DNA of 60,500 nucleotides, the filler included, from Fonticula-like sp. SCN 57-25 (Eukaryota), in assembly GCA_001724245.1 (NCBI GenBank). It is 10 parts of 10 records of this genome, joined end to end, with 100 filler letters (N's around TTAATTAATTAA, not from the genome) between each part and the next. Parts side by side here need not be neighbours in the genome. Positions count along the whole stretch, not along the records: positions 1 to 5,365 come from MEDX01000584.1; 9 more parts are not named here. One strand, given 5' to 3'. A program made the translations under genes and the position numbers. The first letter of the stretch is position 1, and the number at the start of each line of letters is the position of its first letter. Under the pieces are notes generated by a model that was given only the letters and a program-made list of their open reading frames with translations, had not been told where the DNA came from and ran no database searches. This document shows positions 1-40,108 of this stretch, one piece after another.

Positions 1-3000
1 CACTACTTGAACCTTAGCGCGTCCATGGTGAACAGTGCAGTTCGTTACAACCGCGGCAAGGTATGATCCTACTCCCCCTTTTTTTGCGTCGCCTATTGTT
101 GTGACCTAACCTGTGTCGTGCAGACTGGGATCCGCGCTACGTGGACAGCAGGTACCCTCACGTGTTTTGAAACTCACATGTTGGGAGCTGGTTATCGCGC
201 CTATGTCGCATTTGATTATGTGACCTGCGATACAAACGCCGACTGCACGAACAACGCGTGCGTCTGCAGGTCGGGCTACACTGGATCTGGATCTGTTGGC
301 AACTGCTACCGTGCGCAACTGCTCTCTCGTAAATCTATGCTAACGACGGCGCCTGCAGCGTCCACTTGTTCCGCGACCACGATGGCCAATGCCAATTTCC
401 CAGCCACGACTTCTGGCGCTACCGCTTCGGGCACATGTGTTAGCACTTTCCAGGGTTCAGTGTGGGCAACCTGCTCAAGCGGCGCCTGGGGAGCCGTTTC
501 TGGGCAATGCACAAGTGCGTGGACCCTTTCATTCGCGATTGAAAGATATTAACGCACGGCGTACTACAGAGATCACGTGTGCTGCTGATACAAGCGGCAG
601 CGTCGGAGGAGCCACGTATCCGGCAACCAATGCAGGAACCCAGGCTGCGGGTGTTTGCCTTTCTGGCTACTCTGGATCTTCGCTGCGCAGCTGCGGCGTC
701 ACCGGCGTGTGGGCCAATCCAAGCACATCGTGCAGCCGTACGCCTTATCCTGGGCCTTATCACGCTTTTCATTCGGTTTGCTTAGTGCTTTTTTGCAGGC
801 ATCTATTGCGGCGCTACCACTATTGGAACGGCCTCTTTCGTCTCCTCGCCTAGTTTGACTACGGTCACTGGCACGTGTGCGTCGGGGTATTCGGGCTCTC
901 CCACGGCAACTTGCACCGCTGCTGGCACGTGGTCTGGCGTCTCAAACCCGTGCATCCGTACGCATTCTCTGTGGTTGGATGCTGCTGCTCATGTGCTCGA
1001 TAGAAAACACATGCGCGGGCCACTCGGATGCTTCCAGGAACGTCGTTTGGCCAACCGCCTTGTCGTTTGCCGTGGCGACAGGCACCTGCAACGCTGGCTA
1101 CGACGGCGCCCCCCAACGCTCCTGCCAGGCTAATGGCCAGTGGAGCTCGACCGTTTCTGGCACATGCATTCGTGCGCGCGGGATATATTTGATTCTTTTT
1201 TACTCACTATGAAATAGAGCGCACTTGCAGCGCTGCTGCTGGGTATGACAATGCCAATTGGCCGCTCACGGGTGCTGGCAATACTGCCACCGGCATTTGC
1301 GCGTCGGGCTACTCGGGATCTCCGCAGCGCTCCTGCGAGCTGACCGGCGCCTGGTCACCAGCGGTCACAAACAACTGCGTCCGTGCGTATCTTTAAGCGT
1401 GGCTTGCGATGATTTCTCACTCTTGCAATGACCGAAAAGGCAACCTCTGTTTGGCCGTCACGTACAACAATGCTGTCTGGCCCGGCAACACGCTTTCCAA
1501 CACGGTGGCCACTGGTACTTGCGTCGCTGGCTTTTACGGCTCGCCTACCCGCCAGTGTAACGCGGACGGCTCCTGGGGAGCTATCAGCAATCCGTGCATC
1601 CGTGCGCTCGATAATTTGTTTCAATGATACGCTGCTAACTTTGTTGTGACAGAGATCTTTTGTTCTGCCTCTACGCAGTACAATGCCAATTGGCCCAGTA
1701 CTGCTGCCGGTACCACTAATGTGGAAGGCGTGTGCGTGTCCGGCTACTCTGGCCCTGTTCGCAGCAACTGCGACGTCTATGGCTACTGGACACCGTCCAG
1801 CCCATCGTGCACCCGTACGTCGCTCCGCCTATCTAAGATCAGTGACTGACACCCTGACAACAGGCAACACGTGCACCGGAAAGGTGGAAGACCACGCAAC
1901 GTGGAGCACAACACTCTCGCTGGAGCAGACAACGGGCGTCTGCGCAGCGGGCTATTCGGGCACGCCGCAGCGCACATGCGGGGCCGACGGCGTCTTTGGC
2001 GCGATCGTCAATCCGTGCAAGCGTACGCAGGCGGCATTATACGATCATTTGCGCTCACCCTTGGCTCCAGAGATTTTGTGCCCTCAGCGGACCGAGAACC
2101 AGGCGACGTGGCTGGAAACTGCTGCCGGTTCTTCCAATGTTGCGGGAACATGCAATCTTGGATGGGCTGGATCACCCAGCCGCTCGTGCGATTTGACCGG
2201 CAACTGGGGCTTGGTAACTGGCAGCTGCACTCGTACGGCCTTTTGCATGTCATATTGATACTGATACCGATTTCAGAGCTAAAGTGTACTGCGGTGAACG
2301 ATTCCAGCGCGCAGGCACTCTGGCCGGAAAAGATGGCAGGCGAAACGTCTGTGCTCGGCCAGTGCTATCCAAACACGTCCGGACAGCCTCGACGCGACTG
2401 CTTTTACAACGCAACGTGGTCGGAGGTCTTGAATCCCTGCTCGAGTACGCAGTGTTCCTGATACATTCCGTAGTAACTGTTATCTTTTAGCCAACCCCTG
2501 CGGCACCCTCACGAATGATCAGCATGCAAACTGGCCTTCCCCGGCGGTGGTCAACACCGTCGTGACAGGAACCTGTGTGGCCGGCTACGATACGACGCTC
2601 CCTGCGCCGTCGCGGCTGTGCAAGGCCGACGGCTCGTGGGATGCGGTCATTAGCAACCCTTGCCAACGTACGCCACTCGCGCGCCGCTTGATTTCGTTTG
2701 CTGATACTCGCGGATGTTGTAGCCCTGTACTGCACTCAGGACTCCGATTCGTACACGCCGTTCTCTGCCACCTGGCCCGAGTCGGTGCAGGCCGGCTTCT
2801 CCGCCACCGGCGTTTGCATCGCCGGCTACACCGGAACAACCGCGCGCACCTGCACGCTCGATGCCAAGTGGAGCACCCCGTCGCCGATTTGCCAGCAGAT
2901 CAAGTGCGCTGCTATTTCAAACGATGGAAACCAGGCGTCGTGGCCGCAGACCGGCGCCGGCAGCACGGCCACCGGCTCGTGCCTCCCCAACTACAAGGGC

Positions 3001-5365
3001 ACGCCGACGCGCGCTTGCTCCCTCACGGGCGAATGGGGCGCAGTTTCGAACCCTTGCGTCGGTACGCACAGCATTGGCCGCCTTGTCTGCGCTCATATCT
3101 CTGTCTCGCAGAGGTGACCTGCCCCGCTGTGGAGGAGGGTTCGGCGTCGTGGAACGAGACAACCTTTGGCCAGACCGTGTCGGGCACGTGCGTCAGCGGC
3201 TTTTACGGCACGGTGACGCGTACCTGCGCCGCGGGCGGTATCTGGCAGCCGATCGTCGGCACATGTGAACGTACGGCGCTGCTGATGGGAATATCAATGT
3301 AATGACTCACGGCATGTGCTTTTCAGGCGTGTCGTGCGCCGCGGAAACAGTCAACAACATTATCTGGGAGGCGACGACAGCAGGCTCGACCGCTACCGGA
3401 ACGTGCGTCATGGGCTACGGCGCGTCGTCGCAGCCGTCCCGCCCGTGCCAATCCAATGGCGTGTGGGGCACCGTTTTGGGCGCCTGTATTCGTGCGCAAT
3501 TCCCATTATTCCATGTGTGCACCTGCTCATTGTAAATTGTAGGGCTGCGTTGCCCCGCCGCCACGTACGAGCAAGCCACCTGGCCCGCAGTGGACTCGAT
3601 GACGTTTGGCGTGTTTGGCACGTGCATTGATGGATGGGCGGGAGCTCCGGTCCGCAACTGCACCGCATCGGGTCAGTACTCGGTCGAGGTCGCGAACCCC
3701 TGCCTGCGTACGCATCAATCAATTTATATTGTTTTTGCTCAGATAGTGGTTGATATAAACAGAGAAGCGCTGCCCGGCCGTCTCGGAAGTGAACGGCGAG
3801 TGGCCCGAAACGCTCGCGGGTGCACAGGCAGTGCCCGGTATCTGCCCGCCGGGTTCCTTTGGCGACGTCAATCGTGACTGCGACCTTAACGGATCATGGC
3901 GCCCAATCATGGGCGTCTGCTCGGGTACGTTGCTCACGCTGCTTGTGGCCACGCGGCTAATCGGCTCGTAGGTCGCCAATGCAGCGCCGCCTCGTTTAGC
4001 AACGCCGAGTGGCCCGCGTCGGCGGCGGGCAGCGTCGCTGCCGGTGTCTGCGACACCGGGTATGCGGGAAGCCCTTCGTGCGAGTGTGACTTGAATGGAT
4101 CATGGGGCGAGGTGTCCAATCCCTGCCTGCGTGCGTTGAGGGTTTTGAAACTTTGATATATTCTGACGCTCGCTTATATAGGTCTTGAGTGCGCCGCGAT
4201 TACCGAGGATAACGCGGATTGGCCAATGTCCGAGTCGCTGACGGTTGCGGCGGGCACTTGCCACCCCGGTTTCATCGGCAGCCCATCACGCTCGTGCAAT
4301 GCCAATGGCCTATGGGACACCATCTCTGATCCCTGCGAAGGTACGTCATGCACTCTGACGCTCGTGCTACGGCTGCTCACGCTCGTTTCGATTTCAGCCA
4401 TTTTCTGCCCCGCCGGTCTTGCTATGAATGCTCAGTGGGAGTCAACGCGCGCCGGCTTTACGGCTGTGGGCAACTGCACGGACGGTTATGTCGGGACGCC
4501 GCAGCGCGCCTGCCAACTGAACGGCCAGTGGAATTCAACCATCATCAACCCGTGCAGCGGTACGCAAATTCAAATGAGACTTCACGGACACTCAACATAC
4601 GCTAGTGTTTTATGAAAACTGCCCCTCGACGACGATTGATCGCACGTTCTTCCCCGAGGCGACGCCCGGCTCAAACAGCACGGGCAACTGCGCAACTGGC
4701 TACGAGGAGAACCCGAATGGCCCGCCCATTCGTCTCTGCCTTGCCAACGGCACCTGGGCCGAAGAGTACAGCAACCACTGCAAGCTGAGTACGATTGCGA
4801 GAATGAAGTGGCTCATATGCTGACGTTGCCTGCGATGTGCAGTCCCCATCGAGTCGGTTGGAAATGTTGCCAACTTGACCCTTGTCAGCAAGACGTCTAG
4901 CTCGGTCCTCCTTACCTGGGAGCTTATCGAGCGCTTCCCCAACACGACGTGCCGCATCGAGCTGGCTGTCGGCGCGGGCTCCTTTGTCATTGCCAACCTC
5001 AACAGTACGCAATTCAATGTGTGCTGTTTATTCTAATATTGTGTTTAGCCGCCGTCGACCTCAATACGACTGAGCTGATGGTCAACAACCTGCACGCGTA
5101 CACCGAGTACTCGTTCCGCGTGACGTCGCGCGACGTGTACGGCTACTACAACGATGACACGGGCGCCCTTCTTGTGACCACCACGTACATTCCTGGTACG
5201 TTTAGCGCGCCTTACTGCTCTGCGCTGCTCACACTTTGTACAGCCCCCGGTGCAATTCAGCTTGGTGAGTCGACCTCGACGTCGCTGTCGATCAGCTGGA
5301 CCGCCTCTGCCCTCGCCGAGATGTACAACGTCTACTACCGCCCCCTGACTGGCGCGCGCAATGTC
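1..5365 (+). CDS. Partial multi-exon extracellular/cell-surface protein: EGF-like domain, 21 tandem HRM(hormone-receptor)/sushi-like 4-Cys modules, then FN3 domains; open at both contig ends
   Basis: Hand-spliced through 24 GT-AG introns (e.g. 61-123, 311-358, 515-569, 738-798 ... 5196-5243) giving one open frame. EGF-like CDTNADCTNNACVCRSGYTG; repeat consensus C-x(7-10)-WP-x-T-x-AG-x4-G-x-C-x2-GY-x-G-x-P-x-R-x-C-x3-G-x-W-x5-PC; FN3 motifs SSSVLLTW and NNLHAYTEYSFRV. Confidence 0.85.
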
Positions 5366-5465
5366 NNNNNNNNNNNNNNNNNNNNNNNNNNNNNNNNNNN
5401 NNNNNNNNNTTAATTAATTAANNNNNNNNNNNNNNNNNNNNNNNNNNNNNNNNNNNNNNNNNNNN
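5366..5465. other. Artificial contig spacer (N44-TTAATTAATTAA-N44); repeated at 11821, 17285, 22740, 28188, 33631, 39472, 44887 and 50300
   Basis: Identical 100-nt N-padded linker with stops in all frames. Confidence 0.98.
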
Positions 5466-8915: not shown

Positions 8916-10204
8916 ATGCCGTCATTGAATGCCGGCGTCGAGGCGATGACGCGCGTGATTGCGACGCCCAACGGGCATCATGGCCACAAGATGGACAAGA
9001 TCGACGAGCTTTTTCCGCGCGCGAATTCGGTCGTTGTCTCGCATGACAACGTGGTGGAAGGCGCGCGCTCGGTCGTGTCGCACTTTTTCCCCGATTGGCC
9101 GCAGGACGACCGGCTGGTGTGCACGCAGTTCACGCATGGCATCACCAACAAGCGTACGCACTCTTTTCCGGGAATCCCTTTCGAGCGCTTTCTAACACTC
9201 CTTTTGCGTGAATAGTGGTCCATTGCAAGCGGACTGATACGGGCGACTCGCTGCTTGTCCGCGTGTACGGACGCAACTCTGAAATCCTTATCGACCGCGG
9301 CCAGGAAGTCATCGTGCGCACGCGCCAAGCGCCTTTAAACCTGCCACTAAACGTGCTCTTTTCGCATTTTTCTCAGAATATTTTCACGTTGAGTCACGAA
9401 GGGTTCGCGCCGCCGCTTTATGGGCGATTCAAGAATGGCATTGTGTACGGCTTCACGCCCGGCCGCCCCTTCTCTGTCGATGACATGGCGGACGATCGCC
9501 TGTCGCGCCTCGCCGCGCGCCGCCTCGCCGAGTGGCACACTGTCCCTGTGCCCGGCGACCGCGCGCCGTCGCTCTTCACGACGATCCGCGCGTGGCTCGC
9601 GCAGGTGCCGAGCGAGTACGCCGACGCCGGCAAGGCCGCGTACCTGCAGAAGCATCTCTCGATGGCGCAGGTGCACGCCGACCTGGACGAGCTGCAGCGC
9701 GACCTTGAAGCGCTCGCCGCGCCCGTCGTGTTTGGGCACAACGATCTCCTCTCGGGCAACGTCATCGTCGACCCCAAGGAGGAAAGCGTTTCTTTTATCG
9801 ATTTTGAGTATGCAAACTACACTTTCCGCGGGTTTGATATTGCAAACCATTTCTGCGAGTTTGCCGGTTTTGACTGCGACTATTCAAAGTACCCGTCGCG
9901 CGAGTTTCAGTTGGTGTGGCTCAGAGAGTACCTCGAGTCGGCCAACAAGACGCCGCCGACCTGCGAGGAGGTCGAGCGGCTGTACACTGAGGTGGCCAAG
10001 TTTGCGCCGGTGCGTGCCACTTTTTAGATATAAAAACCGGTTTCTTACATTGTTTTTTCTTGTTTTTCTTTCCAGGCGTCGCACTTTTTCTGGGCAATTT
10101 GGGCACTCGTCCAGGTACAGATCTCTGATCTCGATTTTGATTATGCCGAGTTTGCCGTGATGCGGTACCAGCAGTTCCGCGTCATGAGGCAAATTCAGTG
10201 CTGA
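8916..10204 (+). CDS. ETNK: Ethanolamine/choline kinase
   Basis: GITNK, LVRVYG, Brenner motif FGHNDLLSGN, FIDFEYA, FDIANHFCEFAG, SHFFWAIWA; three introns. Confidence 0.92.
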
Positions 10205-11731: not shown

Positions 11732-11920
11732 AAGGTAGCAAATAAGAAACCAATGGTAGACGCTGCTTTTTGTTTGTTTCATGTTTGGCAAGCAGCAGCC
11801 GCAATGCCAAGATCAGGAGANNNNNNNNNNNNNNNNNNNNNNNNNNNNNNNNNNNNNNNNNNNNTTAATTAATTAANNNNNNNNNNNNNNNNNNNNNNNN
11901 NNNNNNNNNNNNNNNNNNNN

Positions 11921-12013: not shown

Positions 12014-12512
12014 ACAGATCCACAGGAGCGGGCGTGACCTTGCGCGGCTTTAGCACACTGTTCCTTTGCTGCGCATGATACAGTCCGTCGTTTCCTCTGT
12101 GTTCTACCCCTCTTTTCTTTATTTCCTGTTGTGGAGCGCGGGCGGGCCGGCGTAGTTTCGTTCGCCTGCCTGCCCGCGCTCCCTTCGTCAGCCTTTTGAT
12201 TCGTCTAGTCTGTTTCACATAAACGCTTGATTACCAAATTCTCTAGAGACATCTCTGAATAGTTTACGGTTTTGCCAAAAAGTAATAGACGTTTCTCTAT
12301 CTTAAACAGTAGATACACGTTCATAGTAGCACAGGGTACAGGGAGATTACATTGAAAACGTATCTTTTAAAGCCTCTTGTAATAGGCCAGAATGTCCCAA
12401 ATTGTCCAAATTTGCCTAAATTTTGGTTCATTTTGCTTCAATATTGGCGGGAATAGAAGATGTTTTCAAAAGGTCGATGATGGATCCTACAGCATTGTGA
12501 CAATCCTGTACG

Positions 12513-13679
12513 ATGTCGAAGCGGTCGGCGGAAGGAGATGGCGCTCCATGGAGCCTGATCGAGAGTGATCCCAGTACGCCTTGCACACTCTCTATCGTTC
12601 CATGTATTAACGCGGCAATAGCGACATTTTCTCAACTTATCCGGAGTATTGGCGTGCGCAATGTAGAGGTGGACGAGATATACTCGCTGGACGATGATTC
12701 GCTAGCGAGCCTGCCGCCCGTATACGGCGTAATATTCCTGTTCAAGTGGCGCGCCGATGCGCCTTCGCGGCAGCCGTCGTCGACGTCCACCGAAGGCATC
12801 GACGATGTTTACTTTGCTAGCCAGGTAATTGATAATGCGTGTGCGACGCAGGCTGTGCTGAGCGTCGTGCTGAATCGCCCCGACCTCGACATTGGCGATG
12901 ACCTGATCCACTTTAAAAACTTTACCGCCGACTTTCCGCCTGCGCTCAAGGGCCTTGCCATCAGCAATAGCGACCTTTTGCGCGAGGTGCACAACAGTTT
13001 TGCAAGCGACTCTTTCGCGCTCGATGCCGACCTCGATCTGATCCGCGGGTCGACCGGCGGCGGCGGTGTCAGCGCGGGCGCCACCGGCAAGAGCAACGAC
13101 ACGTACCACTTTATCAGCTACGTACCAGTGAATAACCACGTGTTCGAGCTTGACGGCCTGAGCGACGGGCCCGTCAATGTCGGCACGGTGGCGGATGGCG
13201 CTTCGTGGCTCGATGTCGTCCTGCCCGTGATCAAGGAGCGGATCAGCCAGCACACGCAGTCCGAGATCCGCTTCAACCTCATGGCCGTCGTCAAGGACCG
13301 CCGCGCCGTCGCCGCACAGGAGCTCCAGCGGCTGGAACTCGTGCGCGCTGCGCTCATGGCGCACATGCTCGCCCTGCGGGAGCCGCCGTCTGCCGAGCCC
13401 CCCGTGCTGCCCGATCTCGGCCCCCTGGCAGATCTTGCCGGTAACGAGGCGAGGCTCGTCGAGGCCGTGTCCGAGAACGAGCAGCAGCTTACCGAGCAGC
13501 GCAAGGTATTAAAGGCCGAAGAGGAGCGCGAGGAGGCGGCGCGGCTCGAGGGCGTCCGCAGGAAACACAATTACTACCCGTTCATCATCGAGCTGATCAA
13601 GATCCTCGGCGCAAAGGGCGAGCTCGCGCCGCTGATTTCGCGCGCGAAGGCGAGGGCGGGAAAGTCGGCGCTCAGGTGA
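12513..13679 (+). CDS. UCHL5: Ubiquitin C-terminal hydrolase UCH37/UCHL5
   Basis: WSLIESDP, QVIDNACATQA, YHFISYVP, ELDGL, IRFNLMAVV, RRKHNYYPFI; one 48-nt in-frame intron near 12575. Confidence 0.95.
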   Translation: MSKRSAEGDGAPWSLIESDPSTPCTLSIVPCINAAIATFSQLIRSIGVRNVEVDEIYSLDDDSLASLPPVYGVIFLFKWRADAPSRQPSSTSTEGIDDVYFASQVIDNACATQAVLSVVLNRPDLDIGDDLIHFKNFTADFPPALKGLAISNSDLLREVHNSFASDSFALDADLDLIRGSTGGGGVSAGATGKSNDTYHFISYVPVNNHVFELDGLSDGPVNVGTVADGASWLDVVLPVIKERISQHTQSEIRFNLMAVVKDRRAVAAQELQRLELVRAALMAHMLALREPPSAEPPVLPDLGPLADLAGNEARLVEAVSENEQQLTEQRKVLKAEEEREEAARLEGVRRKHNYYPFIIELIKILGAKGELAPLISRAKARAGKSALR

Positions 13680-17284: not shown

Positions 17285-17384
17285 NNNNNNNNNNNNNNNN
17301 NNNNNNNNNNNNNNNNNNNNNNNNNNNNTTAATTAATTAANNNNNNNNNNNNNNNNNNNNNNNNNNNNNNNNNNNNNNNNNNNN

Positions 17385-20701: not shown

Positions 20702-22839
20702 TCTCGAGCCAGTCGTAGATTCGATCAAGAAACCGCCGTTCTACGGGCACAACAACAAGAAAACGAGGTCTGGTCAAGGCCCCTAGTACGCGGGAGCAAT
20801 CCGCGTATGTCTGCCGTGCGCCAGCAGAGCTTCAGTACTCCCGCCAGTAAAGTGCCAACGCTCACCTGATGGCGTCAGCAGGATGGCAGACAATCAAAAC
20901 AAAGCAGAGAGGCACCCCCTCTGAGAAACAACAACGCGCGGCGAGCGGATTACAATCCAAGGGGGGGAATATGTGGGGTTCCCTGCAGCGAGGTCAAGAC
21001 GGCGTAGTGCACTCCGCGTTTTTTACACTACAGAAGTTTCTGGGGAGGGCTATCCGACTCGGAAAATGTCATTCGTCCGCGTCGTCATCGAATCCTCAAT
21101 CCCAAAAAAGGTAGCCCCTAGTTAGCATTCTGTTTCTTCTAAAGGCAACAGCGGAACGCCCTGATTGGCCGATGATCAAGGGGCGTTTCAGAGGCATCCA
21201 AAGATGCCCAAATTCGGACTGGATCTCTCCGATGCGGCAACTATCGATACACTGCAGCAGGCCTGTGACACGTAACATCCCGATTAACACCGATCCGGAT
21301 CGAAGTGTGGGACGACTCCAGCGGGCTGCTGCTGCCCGCGCCCCGGCTGCTACCACGTTGCCGCGATGACGTAATATTGTGCGCCCACTGTGTAGAGTAG
21401 TCGCGCTGGCCTCTGTCGGGTGGCATTATGAGATCCTGCAAGTTTCATTTTATACGGATGCCCTGGACAGCGTTGGTGCGATTGGCCGCCGCAGCTGGTT
21501 GATAGGGGTGGCTAGATGGGCCAACGCGCTCAGCGTGTCCACGGGGCACCGAGCGCGTTTCCTTTTTGGCCAAGGGTCGCGATCTGCTCAAATTTACAGT
21601 TTTTTGAGCGACGCTGTGACGCGCTTAGTTCTGAGCAGCGGCGATGCGTCAGCAGAGATCTCGACCTCCGCGCCATCCGTGATGCGGCTCCCATCCGCGC
21701 AGCGCTACCATGCGCTTGCTGCCATTTTATTACCTTTTGTTGTGCTGTTCATGGCCTTTCTTGTCGCTTGTGCAAGGGGCTCGCACCAGCGAGCCCGAAA
21801 GCACGATGTTGCAGGCTGTTTGTGGATGGTCAAACTAAAGCCATCAGATAAGTGAATATATTGATCACAGAAACCACGCTCCACAACACATTCGCATATC
21901 ATACTACAATATTTGCGTATATACCGGTTGCTGTAAATTAGACTTCCGATACCACTAACAATGAACGCGCGATCAACCCAAGGTACCACCACGTCATCGC
22001 TCGAACATCATCTTACGTGACAACCAGTCACCTCGGCCGATGTCGCGGACGGCAATACTGAAAGTCTCAAAATATGGTCAACAACAGTAAGGGTTCACGA
22101 TTGGACTTCAACGGTGAGGGCTAACCCAGTGCCGTTGGTGATTGCCGTCGACGAAATTTCAACCTTGCTGCGATGTCCCAAGGTAGGGACATGGCACGAG
22201 ACAAAACTGCAACCACACGCTAAGCGGCGGAGCGTCCTCAGTTGATGTTGGCATCAAATGGTATCGAATAAAAGACAAGCGCGAAAACATGGTCCGAATC
22301 GAGATGCGAGGATTGTCGACGACGTGGAATGTCGACGGCGACCATGCCATTGGTTCGATTCGTGATTGCGATGGGATGCCAATTGCCCCATCTGCCACCC
22401 ACGCGCAATCTTGATCAACATAATTCAGGAGGTAAAGACGACAGGCCTGAATTCGCCGCAACGAACCTCACGTAGCGCGATTCATGGTGGTCGGCTGTCA
22501 AACGGCTGCCAAACGGCGGCGAGAGAAAAGAACGAAACTGTTGATTTGTGGCGACCAATCACGAATGTCCAAAACGAGTAGTCCAATCATATCGCTCCTA
22601 GCCATGAATACGCGGAAATGGTTGGTCCGCTGCTGAACCGCCACGAGCTAGACCCATGCGCCAGGTTGACTATCAGAAATAATAAGAATTGAACAGTGAT
22701 TGAATGGCCTTTTGTAGACTAAAATGATGGCTGCAGAGTNNNNNNNNNNNNNNNNNNNNNNNNNNNNNNNNNNNNNNNNNNNNTTAATTAATTAANNNNN
22801 NNNNNNNNNNNNNNNNNNNNNNNNNNNNNNNNNNNNNNN

Positions 22840-25800
22840 CCTTCTGCTCATCGGTGTGTCCGGCGCCGGCAAGACGACGCTCACGCGCTTTGTCGCGTGG
22901 ATGACGGGTCTCTCCGTGTTCCAGCTCCGTGTGCATAACGGCTACACAATGGAGGACTTTGACGACGATCTGCGCAACGTTCTCCGCCGCGCGGGTTGCC
23001 GCGGCGAAAAGATCTGCTTCATCATGGATGAGGGCAACGTTCTTGACGCCGGTTTCCTCGAGCGTATCAACACGCTGCTCGCTAACGGTGAAGTGCCTGG
23101 TCTCTTTGACGGTGACGAGTATGGCGCCCTTATGACTCAGTGCAAGGAGGGCGCCCAGCGCGAGGGCCTGATGCTCGACTCGCCCGACGAGCTTTACAAG
23201 TGGTTCACCGCGCAGATCATGCGCAACCTCCACGTGGTGTTCACGATGAACCCGCCGGAGGGCGGTCTCGGTGGCCGCGCCGCCACGTCGCCCGCCCTGT
23301 TCAATCGTTGCGTTCTCGACTGGTTCGGCGATTGGTCCCCGCAGGCCTTCTACCAGGTCGGCCACGACTTCACCGACAAGCTCGACCTTGACCTCCCGTC
23401 GTACCGCGTGCCGGACTTTTTCCCGGTGGCGTACGCGGATCTCGCAAACCCGCCGACGCACCGCGATGCGATTATCAACGCCCTTGTGTATGTGCACTCG
23501 TCGTTGGCCGACGTCAACCTGCGCGTGGCCAAACGCCAAGGCCGTACCAACCACGTCACGCCGCGCCACTACCTCGACTTTATCCAGCACTACGTGCGCC
23601 TGTACAACATGAAGCGCGAGGAGCTTGAGGAGCAGCAGCTTCACCTGAACGTCGGTCTGAAGAAGCTGCGCGATACCTTTGACAACGTCGAGGAGCTTCA
23701 GCGCAGTCTTGCTGGCGTGAACGCCGAGCTCGAGCGCAAGAACATTGCTGCCAACGAGAAGCTCCAGGTGATGATCCAGGAGCAGCAGGAGGCCGAGCGC
23801 CGCAAGACTGCTTCGATTGATATCCAGCGTGCGGTCGAGGAGAAGGACCGCGAGATCGAGTCTCGCAAGAGCGTCGTCATGACTGATCTTGCCAAGGCCG
23901 AGCCCGCCGTTATCGAGGCGCAAACCGCTGTCAACGGCATTAAAAAGTCCCATCTTGTCGAGCTGCGTAGTATGGCGAACCCGCCCAAGCTGGTGCAGCT
24001 CGCGCTCGAATCCGTCTGCGTGCTGCTCGGAGAGAAGGGCGACCTGAACTGGAAGCTCATCCAGGCCGTCCTCCGTCGTGACGACTTTATCCCCAGCATC
24101 GTCAACTACGACACGGACAAGAACATGACGGAGTCGATGCGCACGCGCATCCGCACCCAGTACATGAAGGACCCCCAGTATACATTCGAGACGGTCAACC
24201 ACTCGTCCAAGGCTTGCGGTCCGCTTGTCCAGTGGGTTATTGCTCAAGTGTCGTACTCTGAGATCCTGACCAAGGTTGAGCCGCTCCGTAACGAGGTCAG
24301 CCAGCTCGAGGCCGATTCTCAGGGTGTTCGCATCCAGCTCGCCGAAGTCCAGCGTCTTGTTGGCGAGCTCGAGGCGTCCATTGCGCGCTACAAGGAGGAG
24401 TATGCCGTTCTCATTGCGGATACGCAGGCGCTCAAGGCCCAGATGGAGACTGTGCGCACCAAGGTGGAGCGCGCGACCAAGCTGCTCGGCTCGCTCACGT
24501 CGGAGCGTGCTCGCTGGGAGGACTCGTCGGCCACGTTTGGCTCGCAGATGGGCACGCTTACCGGCGACGCTCTTTTGTGCGCCGCGTTCCTGGCGTACGC
24601 CGGCTTCTTTGACCAGCAGCATCGCCACATCCTCTGGTCTCGCTGGACGGCGCACCTCAACGCGTCGGGCGTTCTGTTCAAGCAGGACCTCGCCGTCACC
24701 GAGTACCTGTCGTCAGCCGACACGCGCCTCGGATGGCAGTCGAACGGGCTCCCCGCCGACGACCTCGCCAACGAGAACGCCATCATGCTCTCGCGCTTCA
24801 ACCGCTACCCGCTCGTGATCGATCCGTCGGGTCAGGCGACCACCTTCCTCATCAACGAGTACAAGGACCGCAAGATTGCTCGCACGTCGTTCCTGGACAA
24901 GGCGTTCATCAAGACGCTCGAAGCGTCCCTGCGCTTTGGCACGCCGCTGCTTGTGGAGGATGTCGAGTCGATTGATCCTATCCTGAACCCGCTGCTGAAC
25001 AAGGAGCTGCGCAAGGCTGGCGGTCGTGTGCTTGTCCGCCTCGGCGCCAATGACATTGACTTTTCGCCGTCGTTCACGCTCATTCTCGCGACGCGCGATC
25101 CCACCGCCGCGTTCGGTCCCGATCTCTGCTCGCGTGTGACCTTTGTCAACTTTACGGTCACCCGCTCTTCCCTCCGCGCTCAGTGCCTGCACCGCGTGCT
25201 CAAGGCGGAGCGCCCCGACATTGAGCAGAAGCGCACGGATCTGCTTCGCATGCAGGGCGAGTTCCAGCTTCGCCTTCGCCATCTCGAGCGCTCTCTCCTT
25301 GATGCGCTCAACGCGTCCGAGGGCTCCATCCTCGAGAACGACAAGGTCATTGCCACGCTTGAAAAGCTCAAGTTTGAGGCCGCCGACATCAGCACAAAGA
25401 TGGCGGAGACCGAGGCCATCGCCGCCGAGGTCAATGAAGGCATGGCGACGTACACGCCGCTGGCGGCTGCTTGCTCGTCCGTTTACTTTGCGCTCGAGCA
25501 GCTCTCGCAGCTCCATCCGTTCTACCAGTACTCGCTCGACATGTTCTATCAGATCTTTGCGTTTGTCATGCAGGCGAACCCGCATCTGCAGGGCGTCACC
25601 GACCCGGCCAAGCGCCTGGAGATCCTTACCGCCGACCTCTTTGCTGTCGTGTACCAGCGCGTTTCCACCTCGCTGCACAACGCCGACCATATCACGCTCG
25701 CGGTGATTCTCGCCCGCGTTATGGCCCGCGCCTCCGCGGCCAGCAGCGCCTCTCGTGCCATCGCGGATGCCAGCAACCTCGCCTTTGGAAGCAGCGGCGC

Positions 25801-28168
25801 ATCCGGCGCTGCCGAAAAGGCCGCGTCGCTGCGTGCCGTTGATGAGGACGAGTACGACGAGCTCATTGCCCACGTCGAGGCCGGCGCGACTGCCGCGTCT
25901 GGACCGCTGATCCCGTCCGCGGTGGTCACCGTCGCCGCGCAGCTCAAGGTTGACGACGACGCGAGGGCTCGCCTTGCCAGCATCTCGCGCCTTGTATCCA
26001 TGTCGGGCCTCGTCGCGCACATTGCGGCGAACCCGTCGGACTGGGCGGCGTTCATGGACTCGAACGAGGCCGAGCTGGTCGTCCCGCTCTGCTGGTCTTC
26101 GCCGTCCGCCACGCACGAGGCCGTGAGCGACTTTGTGCGTCGCGCGCTCATCGTCAAGGCGCTTCGCCCCGACCGCCTCGTGGCGGCCAGCTACGGGATC
26201 TGCAACGCGCTCTTTGGCGAGGGTGTGTTGGACGCTGCCGAGCAGCAGACGCGCCTGCGCACCACCGTCGAGAGCGAGATTATGGCCAACACGCCCGTTG
26301 CGCTGTGCAGCGTTGCCGGCTTGGACGCGTCCTTCCGCGTGGACCAGCTTGCGCGCGACAAGAACGTGCCGCTGACGTCGGTCGCCATTGGTTCCGCCGA
26401 GGGCTTTGCTCAGAGCGACCAGGCGATTGCCGCCGCCGCCGCCAACGGTAGCTGGGTGATGCTCAAGAACGTTCACCTCGCCCCGCAGTGGCTCGTCACC
26501 CTTGAGAAGCGCCTTCACGCGCTCCGCCCTCACCCTCAGTTCCGCCTGTTCTTTACGACTGAGATTTTGCCGACGGTGCCCTCGTCCATCCTGCGTCTGT
26601 CTCGCATCTTTTTGTACGAGCGCCCGCCTGGTGTGCGTGCGAACCTGCTCGAGACGCTCGCCTCAGTTCCGTCGGAGCGCGCTGCCCGCGTGCCTGTTGA
26701 GCGCGCTCGCCTGTTCTTCCAGCTCGCCTGGCTGCACGCCGTTGTGCAGGAGCGCCTGCGCTACGCGCCGATGGGCTGGACCAAGGTGTACGAGTTCAAC
26801 GACGCCGACCGCCGCAGCGCTATCGACGTCATTGACACGTGGGTGGACCAAGTGGCCGCGGGCCGCACCAACATTGCCCCGGACCGCATTCCGTGGGCCG
26901 CCCTGCGCACCATCCTGTCGCAGAGCATCTACGGTGGCCGCATCGACAACGAGTTTGACCAGAAGACGCTCGAGTCGTTCCTCGCTAGCACGTTTGCGGC
27001 CGAGGCGTACGGCGGTGACTATGCGCTTGCCAGCGACAGCACCGGCGACGAGAAGCTCGTTGTCCGCGCGCCCGAGGGCACCAACCTGCAGGCGTTTGCC
27101 TCGTGGGTGGCGGGCTTGCCTGATCACCAGCCGCCGACGTGGATTGGCCTGCCGCCGGACGCGGACGACGTTCTGCTCGTGGCGCAGGGCTGGTCGCTCC
27201 TCAGCAAGCTCCGCACCATGAAGGGCCTCGACGAGGAGGAGGAAGCGCCGGCGACCGAGGTGCTCGGCGGCAAGCCCAAGGAGACCAAGGCGAAGAAGGC
27301 CGACGTCGCGCAGCCGTTGTGGATGGCCTCTGTGGGCCGCAACGCTGCCGAGTGGCTTGCTCTCCTGCCCAAGGATGTTGCCGTGCTGGCGCGCGGCGCT
27401 GACCAGATGAAGGACCCTATCTACCGCTGCATCGAGCGCGAGGCCCGCAACGGCCGCCGCCTTCTGCAGCGCGTGCGCAAGGATCTTTCCGACGTGATTG
27501 CTGTTTGCGAGGGTCGCATGAAGCAGACGAACCACCTCCGCTCGCTCCTGACCGACATTGTCAAGATGGCGATTCCTCGCCACTGGCGCTCGGTGTACAA
27601 GGTCCCGAACGGCACGCCGCTGTCGCAGTGGATCGGCGACTGCGCCGTCCGCGTTGAGCAGCTCGACACACTCGCGAAGCAGCTGCCCGCGCAGATGACG
27701 TTGCCCACTGGCCTCTCTGGCATGGTCATCTGGCTCGGCGGCCTTCTCGCCCCCGAGGCGTACATCACCGCCACCCGCCAGGCTGTGGCGCAGGCGAACC
27801 AATGGTCGCTCGAGGAGCTCTCGCTCGGTCTGCAGCTCGCCGACGTCAGCGATGTCAGCGCGCCGACCGCCGTCAAGAACTCGTTCCTCCTGAGCGGCCT
27901 CCGCCTTGAGGGCGCGTCCCTGCCTGGCGGCCAGCTCAAGCCGGGCCAGTCGGCGCCGACCAAGCTCCCCGTCATGCGCCTCGTCTGGACCCACAAGGAG
28001 GCGGGCAAGGAGACCAAGCCCGTCGAGAACGGCGTCTTGCTGCCCGTGTACCTCAACGCGGCGCGCGCCGACATTCTCTTTGCCACTGAGCTGCCTTCGC
28101 AGGCGTCCGCCAGCGTCGTGTACCAGCGCGGCATCGCCCTCACGGCTTCTTCGCTCAAGGGCATGTAG
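22840..28168 (+). CDS. DYNC1H1: Cytoplasmic dynein-1 heavy chain, C-terminal portion (AAA4, stalk, AAA5, AAA6, C-terminal cap); 5' truncated
   Basis: LLLIGVSGAGKTTLTRFVAW, NLHVVFTMNP, ATSPALFNRC, RYPLVIDPSGQA, WVMLKNVHLAPQWL, YGGRIDN, PVYLN; one uninterrupted 5.3-kb ORF. Confidence 0.98.
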
Positions 28169-28287
28169 AGGTTGGACAGACCACCATNNNNNNNNNNNNN
28201 NNNNNNNNNNNNNNNNNNNNNNNNNNNNNNNTTAATTAATTAANNNNNNNNNNNNNNNNNNNNNNNNNNNNNNNNNNNNNNNNNNNN

Positions 28288-30802
28288 AAGGTACCTATGA
28301 TGAGCTTTCGAAAAGAGAAGGTGGCGAACTGAAAAGACTACTTGATGAGTACAATCTTCATAAACATGAAGTAGAAGAGAAGCAACCAGAGCAAGACAAG
28401 GAAAAGACAAGTTTGACTGAAAAGAAGGAAGAAAGCCCTGAAAATTCTGGAAAATTAATTCAAGATGAAGAGCTTGCACGTGGAGTTGTGTCACTACGTG
28501 TGTTATGGAATTACACTTGGAAAATGGGTGGACCAATTATTATTCTCCTCATTCTATCCTTTTTCCTTCTCGCGCAAGCAGGATTGGTGCTAACGGATTG
28601 GTGGCTAGCCCAGTGGTCTGCCAATTCATTTGCATCCTTCACATATAACCACTATTTGGGAATCTATATAGGTTTAGGAGCAGTAGCTATTTTTGCAATA
28701 TTTTTTAGAGATTTTTGTCTGCAATCCTTTGCATTACTGGCTGCCTTTCGCCTCCATGTTGCCATGTTCAAGCGCGTCATTCGAGCACCTGCACCTTTCT
28801 TCGATGTATGTTGAAACTGTTGAAAAAGGAGTGACTGCAATACTAACTGTTTTGGTTCTTTGATCACTGAACATGTTATAGGTCACTCCATTGGGTAGAA
28901 TCTTGGCACGATTTTCGAAAGATCAAGAAAATGCAGATTCTACTTTTATTGCTGGCGTGTCTCAAACAATCAATGCCATCTTCCAAGTTTTAGGTGCTCT
29001 TGCTGTGATGATTTACGCTTCGTTTGTATTGTAGTGCGAGTCACACTAACTTGTTTCGTGCAACAGATACTGGTTTATTATTCCGATGGTTCCAGTTATC
29101 CTCGTGTATCTTGCAGTTGTAACAATTTATAGGAACAATGCCAGAGAATTGAAGCGTTTGGATGCCGTAAAAAGATCACCTCTGTTTGCCCACTTTGCAG
29201 AATCCATGGTTGGCATTCCCACCATTCGTTCTTACAATGCGGATGAGCGTTTCAAGAGTATCACGCGTGAAAAGATTGATGACCACGTCAGTGTACTGTT
29301 TATCGAATACCAATCTCGTATCTGGATGATGGGTAGACTGGATTTTCTTGGATCCTTGTTAGTGGCAGCCTCTGGTTTCCTGATTTTAGCAATGAAGAAT
29401 CAAATTTCAGTGAGCGTTGCTGGCCTTGGATTCACCTATGCCATTCAAATCACTGCATTTCTGAGCTGGGCTGTTCTTCAATTCTCTGAAGCAGAAGCTA
29501 ATTTGAGCTGTATTGAACGAATTCTTCATTATTCCAACAGTATTCCGAATGAAGCACCTGCTATTATTCACGAGAAGCGCCCTACAAGCAACTGGCCAGA
29601 TAGAGGTGGTATTTCATTCAACAGTTTTTCGATGCGCTACAGACCAAACTTACCACTTGTGCTCAAAAATTTGACAATTGATATCAAACCTGGAGAAAAG
29701 GTACGCTTTTGTGATGATTTTGTTGTGCACGGAATTAACTTGACTACCGAAATACTACTGGATTGTTCAGATTGGAATTGTTGGACGGACTGGTGGAGGA
29801 AAGAGTTCAATGATGGTAAGTTTGTTTTGGGTATCGGTTCGGTTTCGCTCATACCACTTGGATTAGCTTGCCTTGTTTCGCTTCGTGGAGGCAGCAGAGG
29901 GAAACATTTCCATTGACGGGATCGATATTTCCACAATCGGTTTACAAGATTTACGACGGAAGATTGCCATTATTCCCCAAGAGCCAGTCTTGTTCAGTGG
30001 AACTGTTCGAAGCAACCTGGACCCGTTCAATGAGTACAGTGACCAACATTTGTGGAGCTGCTTGGAAAAGGCTCACATCCTCAAGGATATCGAGGCTCTC
30101 CCTAGCAAGCTTGACAACATTGTGACGGAGAATGGAGACAATTTTTCAGTGGGACAGAGACAGTTGCTCTGTCTAGCAAGGGCCCTCACTAAACAGACCA
30201 AGATTTTGATCATGGACGAAGTTACAGCGAACTTGGATTACGAATGCGACGCATTGATTCAACGTACAGTGCGTGATGAGTTTGCATCCTGCACTCGCTT
30301 GACCATTGCGCATCGATTGAACACGATTGTTGATAGTGACCGAATCCTAGTCTTGGACAAGGGAAGTTTAGCCGAATTTGACACACCACTTGCATTGATT
30401 AGCAACGAACATTCGATTTTCACAAGCATGGTCAATGAAACAGGGTCTGCGAACGCAGCACTCCTTAAACGAATTGTGCAGGACCGTGAGAAACTATCCA
30501 CACAGCAATTAGTGGAATTGCAATTGGAAATGGGACATTGCAAAGATGAACAACAGAAACAAGATGAACATCAGATACAGAAGCAAGGTGAACAACAAAT
30601 ACAGAAACAAGGCGAGCAACTAACACATTCACAAGACAAGCAAACACAGAAACAAGATGAACAACAGATACATCTCCAAGATGAACAACAAACACATCTC
30701 CAAGACGAACAGATACATCCACAGATACGAGAGCAAGAAGGACTGGAACTGGAAGTGAGCGAGCATAAAAATGCTGATAACGAGAATGGAAGGAGCGAGT
30801 AG
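28288..30802 (+). CDS. ABCC/MRP transporter, TMD2 and NBD2, with Gln-rich repeat tail; 5' truncated
   Basis: TPLGRILARFSKD, RELKRLD, Walker A GRTGGGKSS, NFSVGQRQLLCLARAL, ILIMDEVTAN, TIAHRLNT; four introns. Confidence 0.95.
30541..30730 (+). repeat. ~24-nt coding repeats (QDEQQIQK/QGEQQIQK)
   Basis: Repeated CAAGATGAACAACA... units in the ABCC tail. Confidence 0.7.
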
Positions 30803-30934
30803 CCAAGACAAGAAGAAAGTATCTATTGTACAAAATGCCGGGATAATAGTTAAAAGCATTACTCATGCAGTTTTAAAAATCACATGTGAACTCAATGGGC
30901 AGCAAATAAGGGCAGGCAGACAGGCAATTTGTCT

Positions 30935-31990
30935 CTAATCCAATTGGAGTGCCTCTTGATCCTTTAGCATCTTTAACACTGTTGGTTTGCCCACGCCACA
31001 GAGGTCGCAGATTTCATCTGGAGTGCCTGGTTCCTTTGGAAACTTCTTTTGCGTGAGAATCAATGCAGCTGCAGCAACAGTTCCAGCCCTGTGACTCGAG
31101 TAATGTGCACCAAGCAGCCTCGCTCGCTTTGCAGCCTCCACGGTTGCCTTACTGCTCCACTTTAGCTGCGAGCAGATTCTTCGCGAGAACTCTGCCTTCC
31201 CCTCACTCGTACCATGAGCAGCAACTGTTGCCAACTGTGGTGCAGCAGCAGATGTCTGGTTCTGCATCAGCGACATTTTAGCATCTCCAGTAGTAGTAGT
31301 AGTAGCACCCTCTGCCCCGAGTGTTGGTATTGGCTGCGCTGTCTCGTTCCTAATCTGCGCGTAGACCCTGATTGCCTTTGAGAAGAGCTTCGAGCTCAAA
31401 TCCCATCCGACTGATTCCTTTGCAGCCATTGTCATCTCGCCAATCTCTCTCGGCACTGCGCTCTCCTTGCTCGAGTGATAGAGGGCCACCAGCGCGAGCG
31501 CCTCGAGTGCCCTCGCGTTGCGCTTCTTCCTCACAGCGGCCGTGAGGAACTTTTCGTGCGCAAGAATGACAATGTTCTCGCCGAAGCCGAGATTCGCAGC
31601 AATGTTCTTCATGTCCCTGCAGTAGCGACGGTACGTGTCGCCGCTCTTCTTCACCAGCTCCACCTGCGATTCTTGCTGTGTTGAAGAGGAGGAAGAGGCA
31701 TGGTTGCGCAGCTGCAGGCGCGTCGGCGCGTCGGAACCCGTGCCACTCACAATGGTGGTGGTGGTTCGGTGGCTGTAGAGCGCCTCCACGAGTGGGCTCG
31801 CGTAGCTGCGCTCCTTGGCCTCGCCGCGTTTATTCGAAATGTCCTCAGGTTCGTGCACCGCGGCATCCGCGTACGAGTAGTTCTGGTCGTCCACCACGGT
31901 CCCGCACTGCGAGCACGTCGCGGCGTTCTCGTTCCCGCCGACGAAATTCTCCACACCGGCGCCACATGAGGGGCAGGTTCGGTGCGACAT
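30935..31990 (-). CDS. Divergent TFIIB-family protein, intronless
   Basis: Zn ribbon CPSC-x16-CSQC; cyclin repeat 1 ALALVALYHSSKESAVPREIGEM; repeat 2 FSRRICSQL...TVAAAALI...EICDLCGVGKPTV. Confidence 0.8.
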   Translation of the reverse strand: MSHRTCPSCGAGVENFVGGNENAATCSQCGTVVDDQNYSYADAAVHEPEDISNKRGEAKERSYASPLVEALYSHRTTTTIVSGTGSDAPTRLQLRNHASSSSSTQQESQVELVKKSGDTYRRYCRDMKNIAANLGFGENIVILAHEKFLTAAVRKKRNARALEALALVALYHSSKESAVPREIGEMTMAAKESVGWDLSSKLFSKAIRVYAQIRNETAQPIPTLGAEGATTTTTGDAKMSLMQNQTSAAAPQLATVAAHGTSEGKAEFSRRICSQLKWSSKATVEAAKRARLLGAHYSSHRAGTVAAAALILTQKKFPKEPGTPDEICDLCGVGKPTVLKMLKDQEALQLD

Positions 31991-39471: not shown

Positions 39472-40108
39472 NNNNNNNNNNNNNNNNNNNNNNNNNNNNN
39501 NNNNNNNNNNNNNNNTTAATTAATTAANNNNNNNNNNNNNNNNNNNNNNNNNNNNNNNNNNNNNNNNNNNNGAGAGCTTCCGTAATCAGGTTTTATAGTC
39601 CCGATCAAGGCGCCATAAAAGGAAATCATCAAATTTGTGGTCTCGCTCGATCCAATCAAATGCGAGAACGAGCCCATCGATGCATCGTAGGATAGGCGTC
39701 GGGCGAACGTTATGTCGCGTGTCCGAGTGGGCTGCCGCGCGTGCCAAAGAGAGGCACAGAGGGAGCAGAAAGGGCCGGGACAATGGCCAAACGCGTGAAC
39801 GCATGCATTACCAGCGTTGCAAATGTGGTAGTCAAAGCATAGGGCGCTCGAGGGACGGCCGCAGTCTATTCTCGTGGTTCAAACACGATGAGCACGATGC
39901 GTGTGATACATTTGCCTAGTCCACTGAGTCCCCGACAGCATTGTGTACATTTTACTTGATGCTATATTACTCGATACCATATTACTCGTTCTACGCACTT
40001 GACGTCCACTTTTGCACACCAATTAAATTTTTAATGGGCCGATGACTACAACCCTGCCACAGCCCTGTTAGTGTCTGCTTGTTGCAGCTTTGCTTTGACC
40101 TCGGAGAC

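Follow-up and report, generated by a model that had tools for sequence, protein, structure and literature searches.

INTRODUCTION

Four described systems come closest to the gene analyzed here, which lies at positions 1 to 5365 of a 60,500-base window (the whole stretch of DNA that was analyzed) from the assembly of Fonticula-like sp. SCN 57-25 and encodes a long array of small cysteine-containing modules. The hormone receptor domain (HRM; PF02793) occurs as one copy in secretin and adhesion G protein-coupled receptors (GPCRs). In class B receptors, it has six cysteines that form three disulfides and is capped by an N-terminal helix, and the class B receptor literature gives its core residues as Trp-Pro, Arg-x-Cys, and Gly-x-Trp. 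Eph receptors carry one sushi subdomain in their cysteine-rich domain (CRD; PF25599; EphA2 199-261), placed behind an ephrin-binding domain and before fibronectin type III (FN3) domains, one membrane helix, and a true tyrosine kinase. Complement control protein (CCP, or Sushi; PF00084) modules form long head-to-tail arrays in CR1, CR2, factor H, and beta2-glycoprotein I, and animal CCP genes encode one module per phase 1-1 exon. Finally, the TKL receptor kinases of unicellular eukaryotes and plants (IRAK/Pelle-like and CTR1/Raf-like) and the lineage-specific receptor tyrosine kinases of choanoflagellates and filastereans are single-pass proteins with a Cys-rich or FN3 ectodomain and a cytoplasmic kinase.

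The distribution of these parts outside animals has been described in several papers. A recent survey of HRM proteins calls the domain "largely restricted to holozoans" and names Fonticula alba as the one non-holozoan with such proteins, in a sampling without stramenopiles or rhizarians (PMC12716839). The same survey counts five or six HRM membrane proteins in this nucleariid, none of them a GPCR, and treats them as a puzzle of transfer, loss, or convergence. Choanoflagellates have Eph-like receptors that lack the sushi/EGF region, according to Krishnan et al. (PMC6485061). Patthy's review confines the shuffling of class 1-1 modules by exons to Metazoa (PMC8001218).

Here, we describe a gene that combines features of all four systems. 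We conclude that positions 1 to 5365 are probably an internal fragment of a real, selected gene, and that this fragment encodes the ectodomain of a member of a type I single-pass TKL-type receptor-kinase family.

RESULTS

Gene model and natural variation

The receptor gene occupies the first piece of the window, a 5365-base contig (1-5365) that cuts it at both ends. An initial annotation had proposed 20 consecutive module exons between 359 and 4788, and we recovered all of them at the same positions, each with an AG acceptor and a GT donor (20/20). The donors are of the GTRCG type (GTACG or GTGCG), and the exons measure 156 to 339 nucleotides (nt), with lengths divisible by 3 in 20/20 and internal stop codons in 0/20. 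The 19 introns that separate them are 44 to 61 nt long. Extension of the model to the contig ends added two exon pieces upstream (1-60 and 124-310) and three downstream (4843-5004, 5049-5195, and 5244-5365), giving 25 exon pieces, 24 introns of 44 to 63 nt, and 1379 stop-free codons after splicing.

Phase 1 is shared by 23 of the 24 introns, all consecutive, and the sole exception is the first intron (61-123), in phase 0. The run of symmetric 1-1 exons comprises 22 exons and is longer than the initial annotation saw. Its proposed layout of one module per symmetric exon holds, with 19 of 21 modules bounded by phase-1 introns on both sides and two modules in exon 12. These 19 modules belong to class 1-1 in the exon-shuffling sense of Patthy, in which domain borders coincide with phase-1 introns. 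The 1-1 exons are not confined to module borders, as 4843-5004 and 5049-5195 each carry half an FN3 domain.

On either side of the array, the domains previously proposed fared differently. FN3 sequence downstream was confirmed by an fn3 match of 32.4 bits on the read-through frame 4901-5365, a score that includes intron-derived residues, and by collinearity with the FN3 region of the closest relative, P0002. Upstream, an EGF-like domain is suggested by a best Pfam match to EGF_MSP1_1 of 19.2 bits, below the cut-off of 27. In the paralog P0013, too, the first module is immediately preceded by Cys in an EGF-like pattern, with which the protein starts.

We used natural variation to examine the integrity of the gene, mapping Logan contigs from 4 runs, each of a separate study and labeled bioreactor, wastewater, fungus, or aquatic metagenome. 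The claims made here draw on these 4 and on none of the 16 other runs listed, which include small shares, several fungus metagenome rows, and one coded organism. The runs that carry the receptor stretch are metagenome runs only, and in each of the 4, between 23 and 30 of its 30 bins are covered, at 90-100% identity. Predicted introns hold 10 of the 12 indels listed (there are 23 further ones), and the other 2 form a compensating -1/+1 pair, two bases apart, in exon 20. Among 40 of the 405 substitutions, 26 of the 32 in exons fall at codon position 3. The third-position bias and the intronic indels thus support the gene model and are the mark of purifying selection on a gene translated in precisely the predicted frame. 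Two odd joints in the mapped contigs (963>2606 and 2801>2869), each seen in one contig of one run, are not exon-exon joints and were rejected as chimeras of repeats or paralogs.

Architecture of the relatives

Because the contig ends within the FN3 region, the remainder of the protein was read from its relatives. A search with the two-module exon returned six longer relatives, and a further search returned 15 family members; all are from metagenome sources (ena, jgi, and lgn). The closest, P0002 (1588 amino acids [aa]), is collinear with the spliced product over residues 3-1138 at 50.7% identity, including FN3. In the module part, identity is 52% in register versus 37% out of register. P0002 has 18 modules, and 15 of the 18 window modules from 4 to 21 find their best match in the positional counterpart. 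As judged from this alignment, the positional pairing shows each module to be individually maintained.

P0002 matches HRM (149 bits in sum, with 4 passing stretches), Sushi, Ephrin_CRD, fn3, and protein kinase families (82.6 bits for PK_Tyr_Ser-Thr, and 76.6 bits) in Pfam. Its strongly hydrophobic segment at 1204-1236 is followed by the protein kinase domain. FN3 domains, one hydrophobic helix, and a kinase also follow the arrays in P0007, P0011, P0013, P0032, P0154, and P0155, and one hydrophobic segment lies between the FN3 and kinase regions in 10 of the 10 kinase-bearing relatives examined. The layout of P0002 and its relatives bears out the earlier proposal of a surface receptor from a non-animal microbial eukaryote. 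GAIN and seven-transmembrane (7TM) families were absent from all 31 relatives scanned with Pfam, in which the C terminus, where present, consists of FN3, one helix, and a kinase. Ephrin_lbd was likewise found in no relative scanned with Pfam, so the proteins as a whole do not have the composition of Eph receptors.

The kinases differ in their catalytic residues. That of P0007 has all the usual motifs, with an HRDxKxxN-type loop, and its nearest solved structures are CTR1 and IRAK4; it is thus TKL type and not a tyrosine kinase. The kinase of P0002 has lost the glycine loop and reads G-F-N for D-F-G, so that the DFG aspartate is gone, and the HRD aspartate is lost in P0011 (H-C-N) and P0032 (H-R-N). 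Several family members are probably pseudokinases, and the family seems, from these motifs, to mix active kinases and pseudokinases.

The chassis and the module also occur apart from each other. FN3, helix, and kinase are retained beneath other ectodomains in P0156 and P0157 (Ephrin_rec_like/NCD3G/TNFR-like) and in P0161 (Furin-like repeats), which from domain content looks like a lineage-specific receptor-kinase radiation by swapping of outer modules. The same module is joined to subtilase and EGF, FG-GAP, ALK/LTK glycine-rich, P_proprotein and CHRD, He_PIG, and Big_5 domains in other proteins. Its presence in so many architectures indicates that it has been shuffled between genes. As leads only, the ESM Atlas likened P0002 to animal FN3 receptor tyrosine kinases, with Eph clusters at ranks 12-13, and placed P0001 1-700 on a "Hormone receptor/Sushi" cluster without taxa.

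Module sequence

The 21 modules are 51-60 aa long, and four Cys and one Gly are invariant among them. The rest of the motif is conserved in most modules: the first Trp in 17/21 modules (aromatic in 21/21), Pro in 15/21, Arg in 17/21, Gly in 19/21, and the second Trp in 19/21. Pairwise identity ranges from 21 to 56%, with a median of 37%. Module 18 (3972-4130) has a fifth Cys at the position where 17 other modules carry the conserved Arg before Cys3, and this Cys may be unpaired or intermolecular.

The modules had been read as HRM-like, and we compared each exon to the candidate families in Pfam, for which the gathering cut-offs are 26.2 (HRM), 20.7 (Sushi), and 27 bits (Ephrin_CRD). At E<=1, HRM was seen in 17/20 exons, Ephrin_CRD in 14/20, and Sushi in 11/20. 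By bits, HRM came first in 12 exons, Ephrin_CRD in 4, and Sushi in 2, and the other 2 exons matched none of the three. HRM passed its cut-off in 2/20 exons (33.5 and 27.6 bits), with one more at 26.1 bits, and Sushi passed in 3/20 (21.5, 21.7, and 24.4 bits). Ephrin_CRD passed in 0/20, the top score being 22.5 bits against 27. Whole relatives score 130-243 bits for HRM, well over Sushi, and P0019 reaches 243 bits with no Sushi match.

The HRM reading is therefore upheld in part. HRM is the top-scoring family in most exons, and the modules contain the Trp-Pro, Arg-x-Cys, and Gly-x-Trp core residues. However, only 2/20 exons pass the cut-off, there are four invariant Cys in place of six, and DSSP assigned only strands, with no N-terminal helix, in both of the models described below. 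The features of a Sushi domain are also present, namely a length of about 60 residues, four invariant Cys, and a Trp between Cys3 and Cys4 (19/21).

A profile of the 21 modules, searched against 1.84 billion representatives, matched 2345 proteins at E<=0.001. Among the best 150 of the 2345 representative clusters, 86 match the module in full, starting at profile positions 1-3, and the remainder match only from about position 8-26 onward. Five of these partial matchers, when scanned, proved to be giant animal-type Sushi proteins (Sushi scores of 933 to 2446 bits) that match only profile positions about 17-52. Solved structures divided similarly. The CCPs of CR2, factor B, C2, and CR1 were matched via positions 19-52, whereas EphA2 (E 3e-4), C1s, CRF receptor 1 (0.029), GHRH receptor, and BAI3 were matched over the full length. 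This contrast indicates that the C-terminal half is generic Sushi and that the N-terminal half, with its W-P, is the part in common with HRM and Eph.

Predicted module structure

We folded two exons. For the exon 13 module, the alignment of all 21 modules was supplied, and the resulting model, with a predicted local distance difference test score (pLDDT) of 96.4, is all-beta and lacks an N-terminal helix. In an exhaustive comparison, its top structural match was the sushi subdomain of the EphA2 CRD (Z 8.8, root mean square deviation [rmsd] 1.0 Å, 52/52 residues, 36% identity), and the next were further EphA2 entries (Z 8.5 and 8.4) and EphB2 (Z 7.7). All of these EphA2 and EphB2 matches cover 52/52 residues at an rmsd of 1.0-1.4 Å. 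After a gap came the Gpr126 HRM (Z 5.6), VIP receptor 2 (5.2), and a PAPP-A CCP (5.1), with class B ectodomains and numerous CCPs behind them at 4-5. Foldseek ranked the matches in the same order, with none at E<=0.001.

The two-module exon 12, folded with six orthologous rows, reached a pLDDT of 93.3. EphA2 was again the best match of its second module, 12b (Z 7.6, rmsd 1.3 Å). Z values of 7-8 are common for models without true relatives; here, they span the whole domain at 1 Å with about one third identity, and they were reproduced. The exon 12 pair superposes on tandem CCP pairs of beta2-glycoprotein I, Crry, CD46, and factor H over 104-108 residues (Z 6.0-6.6), so that both the Sushi fold, seen in the single module against CCPs at Z 4-5, and a head-to-tail tandem arrangement are found in the models. 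The predicted modules are of Sushi fold, strung head to tail like CCP arrays, and nearest in shape to the Eph type.

The HRM scores, four Cys, all-beta model, CCP-like C-terminal half, and Eph-like fold together point to a Sushi-fold module between HRM, Eph sushi, and CCP. As modeled, the modules are a distinct Sushi-fold subclass, neither ordinary CCPs nor demonstrated members of the HRM family.

History of the exon array

Tandem Repeats Finder detected no DNA-level tandem repeat with the module period in the array. This absence, the module identities of 21-56%, and the number and order kept in the approximately 51% identical P0002 indicate an array that is old and stable and not fast-evolving. 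The 19 phase-1-bounded modules are most simply explained as having originated when a 1-1 exon was duplicated in tandem.

The layout of one module per exon does not extend to every case in the family. Two modules share exon 12, and a scan of metagenome contigs with this exon found two distant loci, of which L001 has two contiguous modules in one frame and L002 has no module match. Contigs that match only 1986-2019 (34 bases; runs X1, X4, and X5) run on both sides into different coding sequence, and on the 3' side the next module comes with no intron in between. These contigs indicate that the same communities contain a paralog in which two modules are joined without an intron.

Exons along the contig

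All exons lie on the plus strand. The 5'-truncated coding piece 1-60 is open to the GT donor at 61, where the phase-0 intron begins. The EGF-like Cys-rich exon 124-310 scores 17.3 bits for EB and 17.1 bits for EGF_3 besides EGF_MSP1_1, all under their cut-offs, and ends in phase 1. The module exons that follow are all phase 1-1. Exon 1 (359-514; 156 nt, AG/GT, four Cys) scores 13.5 bits for Ephrin_CRD and 12.3 for HRM, and exon 2 (570-737; 168 nt) scores 16.6 bits for HRM. Two of the Sushi scores over the cut-off belong to exon 3 (799-957; 159 nt; 21.5 bits) and exon 4 (1004-1171; 168 nt; 21.7 bits, with HRM at 18.0), the latter being the counterpart of P0002 module 1. HRM leads in exon 5 (1218-1382; 165 nt; 19.3 bits), exon 6 (1440-1601; 162 nt; 21.0 bits, with Ephrin_CRD at 20.7), and exon 7 (1653-1814; 162 nt; 19.5 bits). 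Exon 8 (1864-2022; 159 nt), which the 1986-2019 paralog contigs overlap, matches Ephrin_CRD only (14.2 bits). The same family scores 17.1 bits in exon 9 (2071-2232; 162 nt) and 22.5 bits in exon 11 (2491-2667; 177 nt). Exon 10 (2277-2444; 168 nt), between them, has no Pfam match at E<=1 and is alignable with the other modules.

Exon 12 (2723-3061; 339 nt), with no intron between its two modules, scores 26.1 bits for HRM and 24.4 for Sushi and is 63% identical to P0002. The folded exon 13 (3112-3270; 159 nt) has the highest HRM score, 33.5 bits, over the cut-off, and exon 14 (3327-3491; 165 nt) scores 22.3 bits for HRM. Exon 15 (3543-3707; 165 nt) matches none of HRM, Sushi, or Ephrin_CRD at E<=1 and, again, is alignable with the other modules. 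HRM scores are 21.4 bits in exon 16 (3763-3924; 162 nt), 18.4 in exon 17 (3972-4130; 159 nt; module 18 of 21, with five Cys), 18.8 in exon 18 (4182-4340; 159 nt), and 27.6, over the cut-off, in exon 19 (4398-4559; 162 nt). Exon 20 (4606-4788; 183 nt; HRM 24.6 bits) encodes the last and longest module, which has an insert and is the counterpart of the last module of P0002.

The first FN3 domain is split between two phase 1-1 exons. The first half (4843-5004; 162 nt) is collinear with P0002 just after its last module, and the second half (5049-5195; 147 nt) scores 19.2 bits for fn3 (profile 46-73) and matches P0002 1036-1138 by tblastn. The 3'-truncated exon 5244-5365 begins the next FN3 domain (fn3 18.9 bits, profile 2-40), and the contig ends at 5365.

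Neighboring contig pieces

The window joins 10 contig pieces through spacers made of 44 N, TTAATTAATTAA, and 44 N, located at 5366-5465, 11821-11920, 17285-17384, 22740-22839, 28188-28287, 33631-33730, 39472-39571, 44887-44986, and 50300-50399. Since the pieces are joined, neighboring genes are not necessarily linked or from one organism. No further sequence of the receptor gene family was found in the window by tblastn with P0002, P0007, and P0011, as all 379 high-scoring segment pairs fell inside 1-5365. Rfam gave no match in the whole window, and hence there is no rRNA or other such marker.

Piece 22840-28187 carries an intronless 1775-aa frame (22841-28168, plus strand) that encodes the C-terminal motor half of a cytoplasmic dynein heavy chain, with AAA_8, MT stalk, AAA_9, Dynein_heavy, AAA_lid_11, and Dynein_C domains. 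Among the 120 matches listed, the best named ones are from early-diverging fungi (Basidiobolus, Dispira, chytrids, and Mucoromycota) at 53-57% identity, with animals at about 52%, and none is from an oomycete. An oomycete origin, which the short introns and the GC content had first brought to mind, was accordingly rejected as unsupported. Codon usage of the dynein and receptor genes correlates at r 0.94, which is weak evidence, as GC-rich usage is common to both. The dynein sequence and codon usage suggest a deep-branching opisthokont without a sequenced close relative, though the pieces need not share an organism. This lead fits the report of HRM proteins in Fonticula alba (PMC12716839).

Piece 28288-33630 differs in composition (GC 0.45; codon usage r about 0.1 to the receptor and dynein genes), encodes ABC_membrane and ABC_tran domains, and may come from another organism or compartment. 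Long open frames elsewhere belong to ordinary eukaryotic genes and encode a choline/ethanolamine kinase (9212-10027, plus strand; 197 bits), a ubiquitin C-terminal hydrolase with a UCH_C tail (12501-13679, plus strand; 189 bits), and a Myb/SANT-like DNA-binding protein (58667-59794, minus strand; 68 bits).

DISCUSSION

Comparison to known systems

The folds, the domain types, and the single-pass receptor-kinase plan of this gene are already known, and each of the closest systems shares part of them. The Eph CRD sushi subdomain is the best structural match of two independently folded modules over 52 residues at 31-36% identity, and as in Eph receptors, the module stands in an ectodomain before FN3, one membrane helix, and a kinase (here, the helix and kinase are taken from relatives). 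Unlike Eph receptors, which have a single such domain and a true tyrosine kinase, the protein has 21 copies and its relatives have a TKL-like kinase; moreover, we saw no ligand-binding domain here, and no exon reaches the Ephrin_CRD cut-off. HRM is the top-scoring Pfam family and has the W-P, R-x-C, and G-x-W residues in common with the modules, and HRM structures are among the matches (Gpr126 at Z 5.6, VIPR2 at 5.2, and latrophilin at Foldseek rank 8). A further likeness is to Fonticula alba, where HRM is reported outside Holozoa in non-GPCR membrane proteins (PMC12716839). The HRM of GPCRs differs in having six Cys rather than four, the N-terminal helix, one copy rather than 18 to 30 in tandem, and a GAIN/7TM context, and most copies here are under the Pfam cut-off.

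With the CCP arrays, the modules share the four Cys, the Trp between Cys3 and Cys4, the alignment of their C-terminal half with CR2 and factor B CCPs, the long head-to-tail array, the superposition of the exon 12 pair on CCP pairs, and the encoding of one module per phase 1-1 exon. Unlike CCPs, they have an N-terminal half with W-P that is not CCP-like and a two-residue deletion in the G-Y-x-L-x-G region, and only 3/20 exons pass the Sushi cut-off. The receptor kinases of unicellular eukaryotes and plants are alike in overall plan, with a single-pass protein, a Cys-rich or FN3 ectodomain, and a cytoplasmic kinase; what differs is the combination with a long HRM-like/Sushi array, which we did not find in the literature searched (open-access papers and preprints). 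In the same literature, we found no non-animal receptor-kinase family with 18-30 tandem HRM-like or Eph-sushi-like modules, and no such gene built from a long run of class 1-1 exons.

Proposed function and alternatives

We favor a receptor whose ectodomain consists of an EGF-like segment, 21 head-to-tail four-Cys Sushi-fold modules, and FN3 domains. By comparison to its collinear relatives, the protein would then continue with more FN3, a single membrane helix, and, on the cytoplasmic side, a kinase or pseudokinase. CCP arrays and Eph ectodomains behave as extended, semi-rigid stalks. Likewise, the module chain may form such a stalk and offer many binding surfaces, similar but each conserved on its own, to a ligand, to another cell, or to a surface. 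Clustering or a signal might then be passed via the kinase domain or via partners that it recruits. The array would have arisen long ago by repeated tandem duplication of a phase 1-1 exon and then been kept module by module. Several observations weigh against this proposal. The contig ends inside FN3, so the membrane helix and kinase are supplied by the collinear relatives P0002 and P0154. Catalytic signaling is doubtful given the sequence of the closest relative's kinase. Most single modules are under every Pfam cut-off, the evidence for the fold consists of AlphaFold models of short domains, and some gene models have no kinase (P0001, P0003-P0006, P0014, and P0158-P0160), although these may be truncated, or may be real secreted forms.

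Those kinase-free models bear on a different function, that of a secreted or wall- or membrane-attached adhesin without a kinase, in which the rod of modules would serve attachment to surfaces, prey, or mates. Module-only gene models do exist (P0001, with 30 modules, and P0003-P0006), and the module is elsewhere joined to subtilase, FG-GAP, P_proprotein with CHRD, He_PIG, and Big_5 domains. However, the models without a kinase look cut off and start inside modules, P0003 ends in an odd tail, FN3, one helix, and a kinase follow the modules in P0002 and P0154 (the nearest collinear relatives), and the gene in the window already enters the same FN3 region in register. We consider an adhesin unlikely. 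The family assignment of the modules is a closer matter. They could be true HRM members, homologous to the hormone receptor domain of secretin and adhesion GPCRs and part of a non-animal pool of tandem HRMs, and for this speak the lead of HRM in 12/20 exons and its detection in 17/20 at E<=1, the two passing scores (33.5 and 27.6 bits), the 130-243 bits of whole relatives over Sushi, the retained W-P, R-x-C, and G-x-W in the consensus, and the precedent of the Fonticula alba membrane proteins (PMC12716839). Yet 18/20 exons are under the HRM cut-off, the modules have four Cys and are modeled as all-beta, lacking the N-terminal helix, the structural ranking puts the Eph sushi subdomain (Z 8.8) well ahead of the best HRM (Z 5.6), and none of the relatives scanned has a GAIN/7TM context. 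True HRM membership thus seems to us a real possibility, if on balance the less probable one.

Two further alternatives concern the gene itself rather than its product. A nonfunctional locus, whether pseudogene, decaying repeat, or assembly artifact, might be suspected from a short contig of metagenome origin and from the odd joints in mapped contigs, whose short sides measure 25 and 29 letters. Sides under 30 letters, as in both joints, are typical of repeats or other organisms, and a dead locus would sit poorly with 1379 stop-free codons, substitutions biased to third positions, 10 of 12 listed indels in introns, coverage at 90-100% identity in 4 runs from 4 studies, and an intact, collinear relative at 51% identity (P0002). 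We regard it as extremely improbable. The initial annotation had also suggested that modules could be skipped in frame, and a cassette use of this kind, yielding many ectodomain isoforms, is allowed by the 22 consecutive phase 1-1 exons, any of which could be omitted with the frame intact. Against it stand the short introns (44-63 nt) and uniform strong GTRCG donors, as such introns and donors are typical of intron-defined constitutive splicing. The module number and order kept relative to P0002, with 15/18 positional pairs, count in the same direction, although they neither prove nor exclude skipping. Exon skipping is also reported to be much rarer outside bilaterian animals (PMC6335736). Alternative skipping in this gene is accordingly very unlikely in our estimation.

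Significance

None of these comparisons alters the basic reading, that of a surface receptor of known folds. What is of interest is the setting of these folds. The Sushi-fold and FN3 parts lie on 22 consecutive 1-1 exons, a style of construction mostly associated with animals, and an animal source for the gene is very unlikely. The gene belongs to a sizeable family of uncultured eukaryotes in which an HRM-like module occurs 18 to 30 times per protein on a receptor-kinase chassis. It is relevant both to where the HRM and Eph modules came from and to exon shuffling in lineages other than animals, and it provides a tangible non-animal case in which the emergence of modules of this kind, and of their exon structure, can be studied. 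One speculative scenario, to which we give a low probability, is that these receptors belong to a pre-animal pool of Sushi-fold modules of this subclass (W-P / R-x-C / G-x-W), which probably lay among the opisthokonts on their fungal side and was ancestral to both HRM and Eph sushi, and that class 1-1 exons were duplicated and spread in a unicellular lineage. If this were true, the origin of the HRM and Eph building blocks, and exon shuffling itself, would become testable outside animals.

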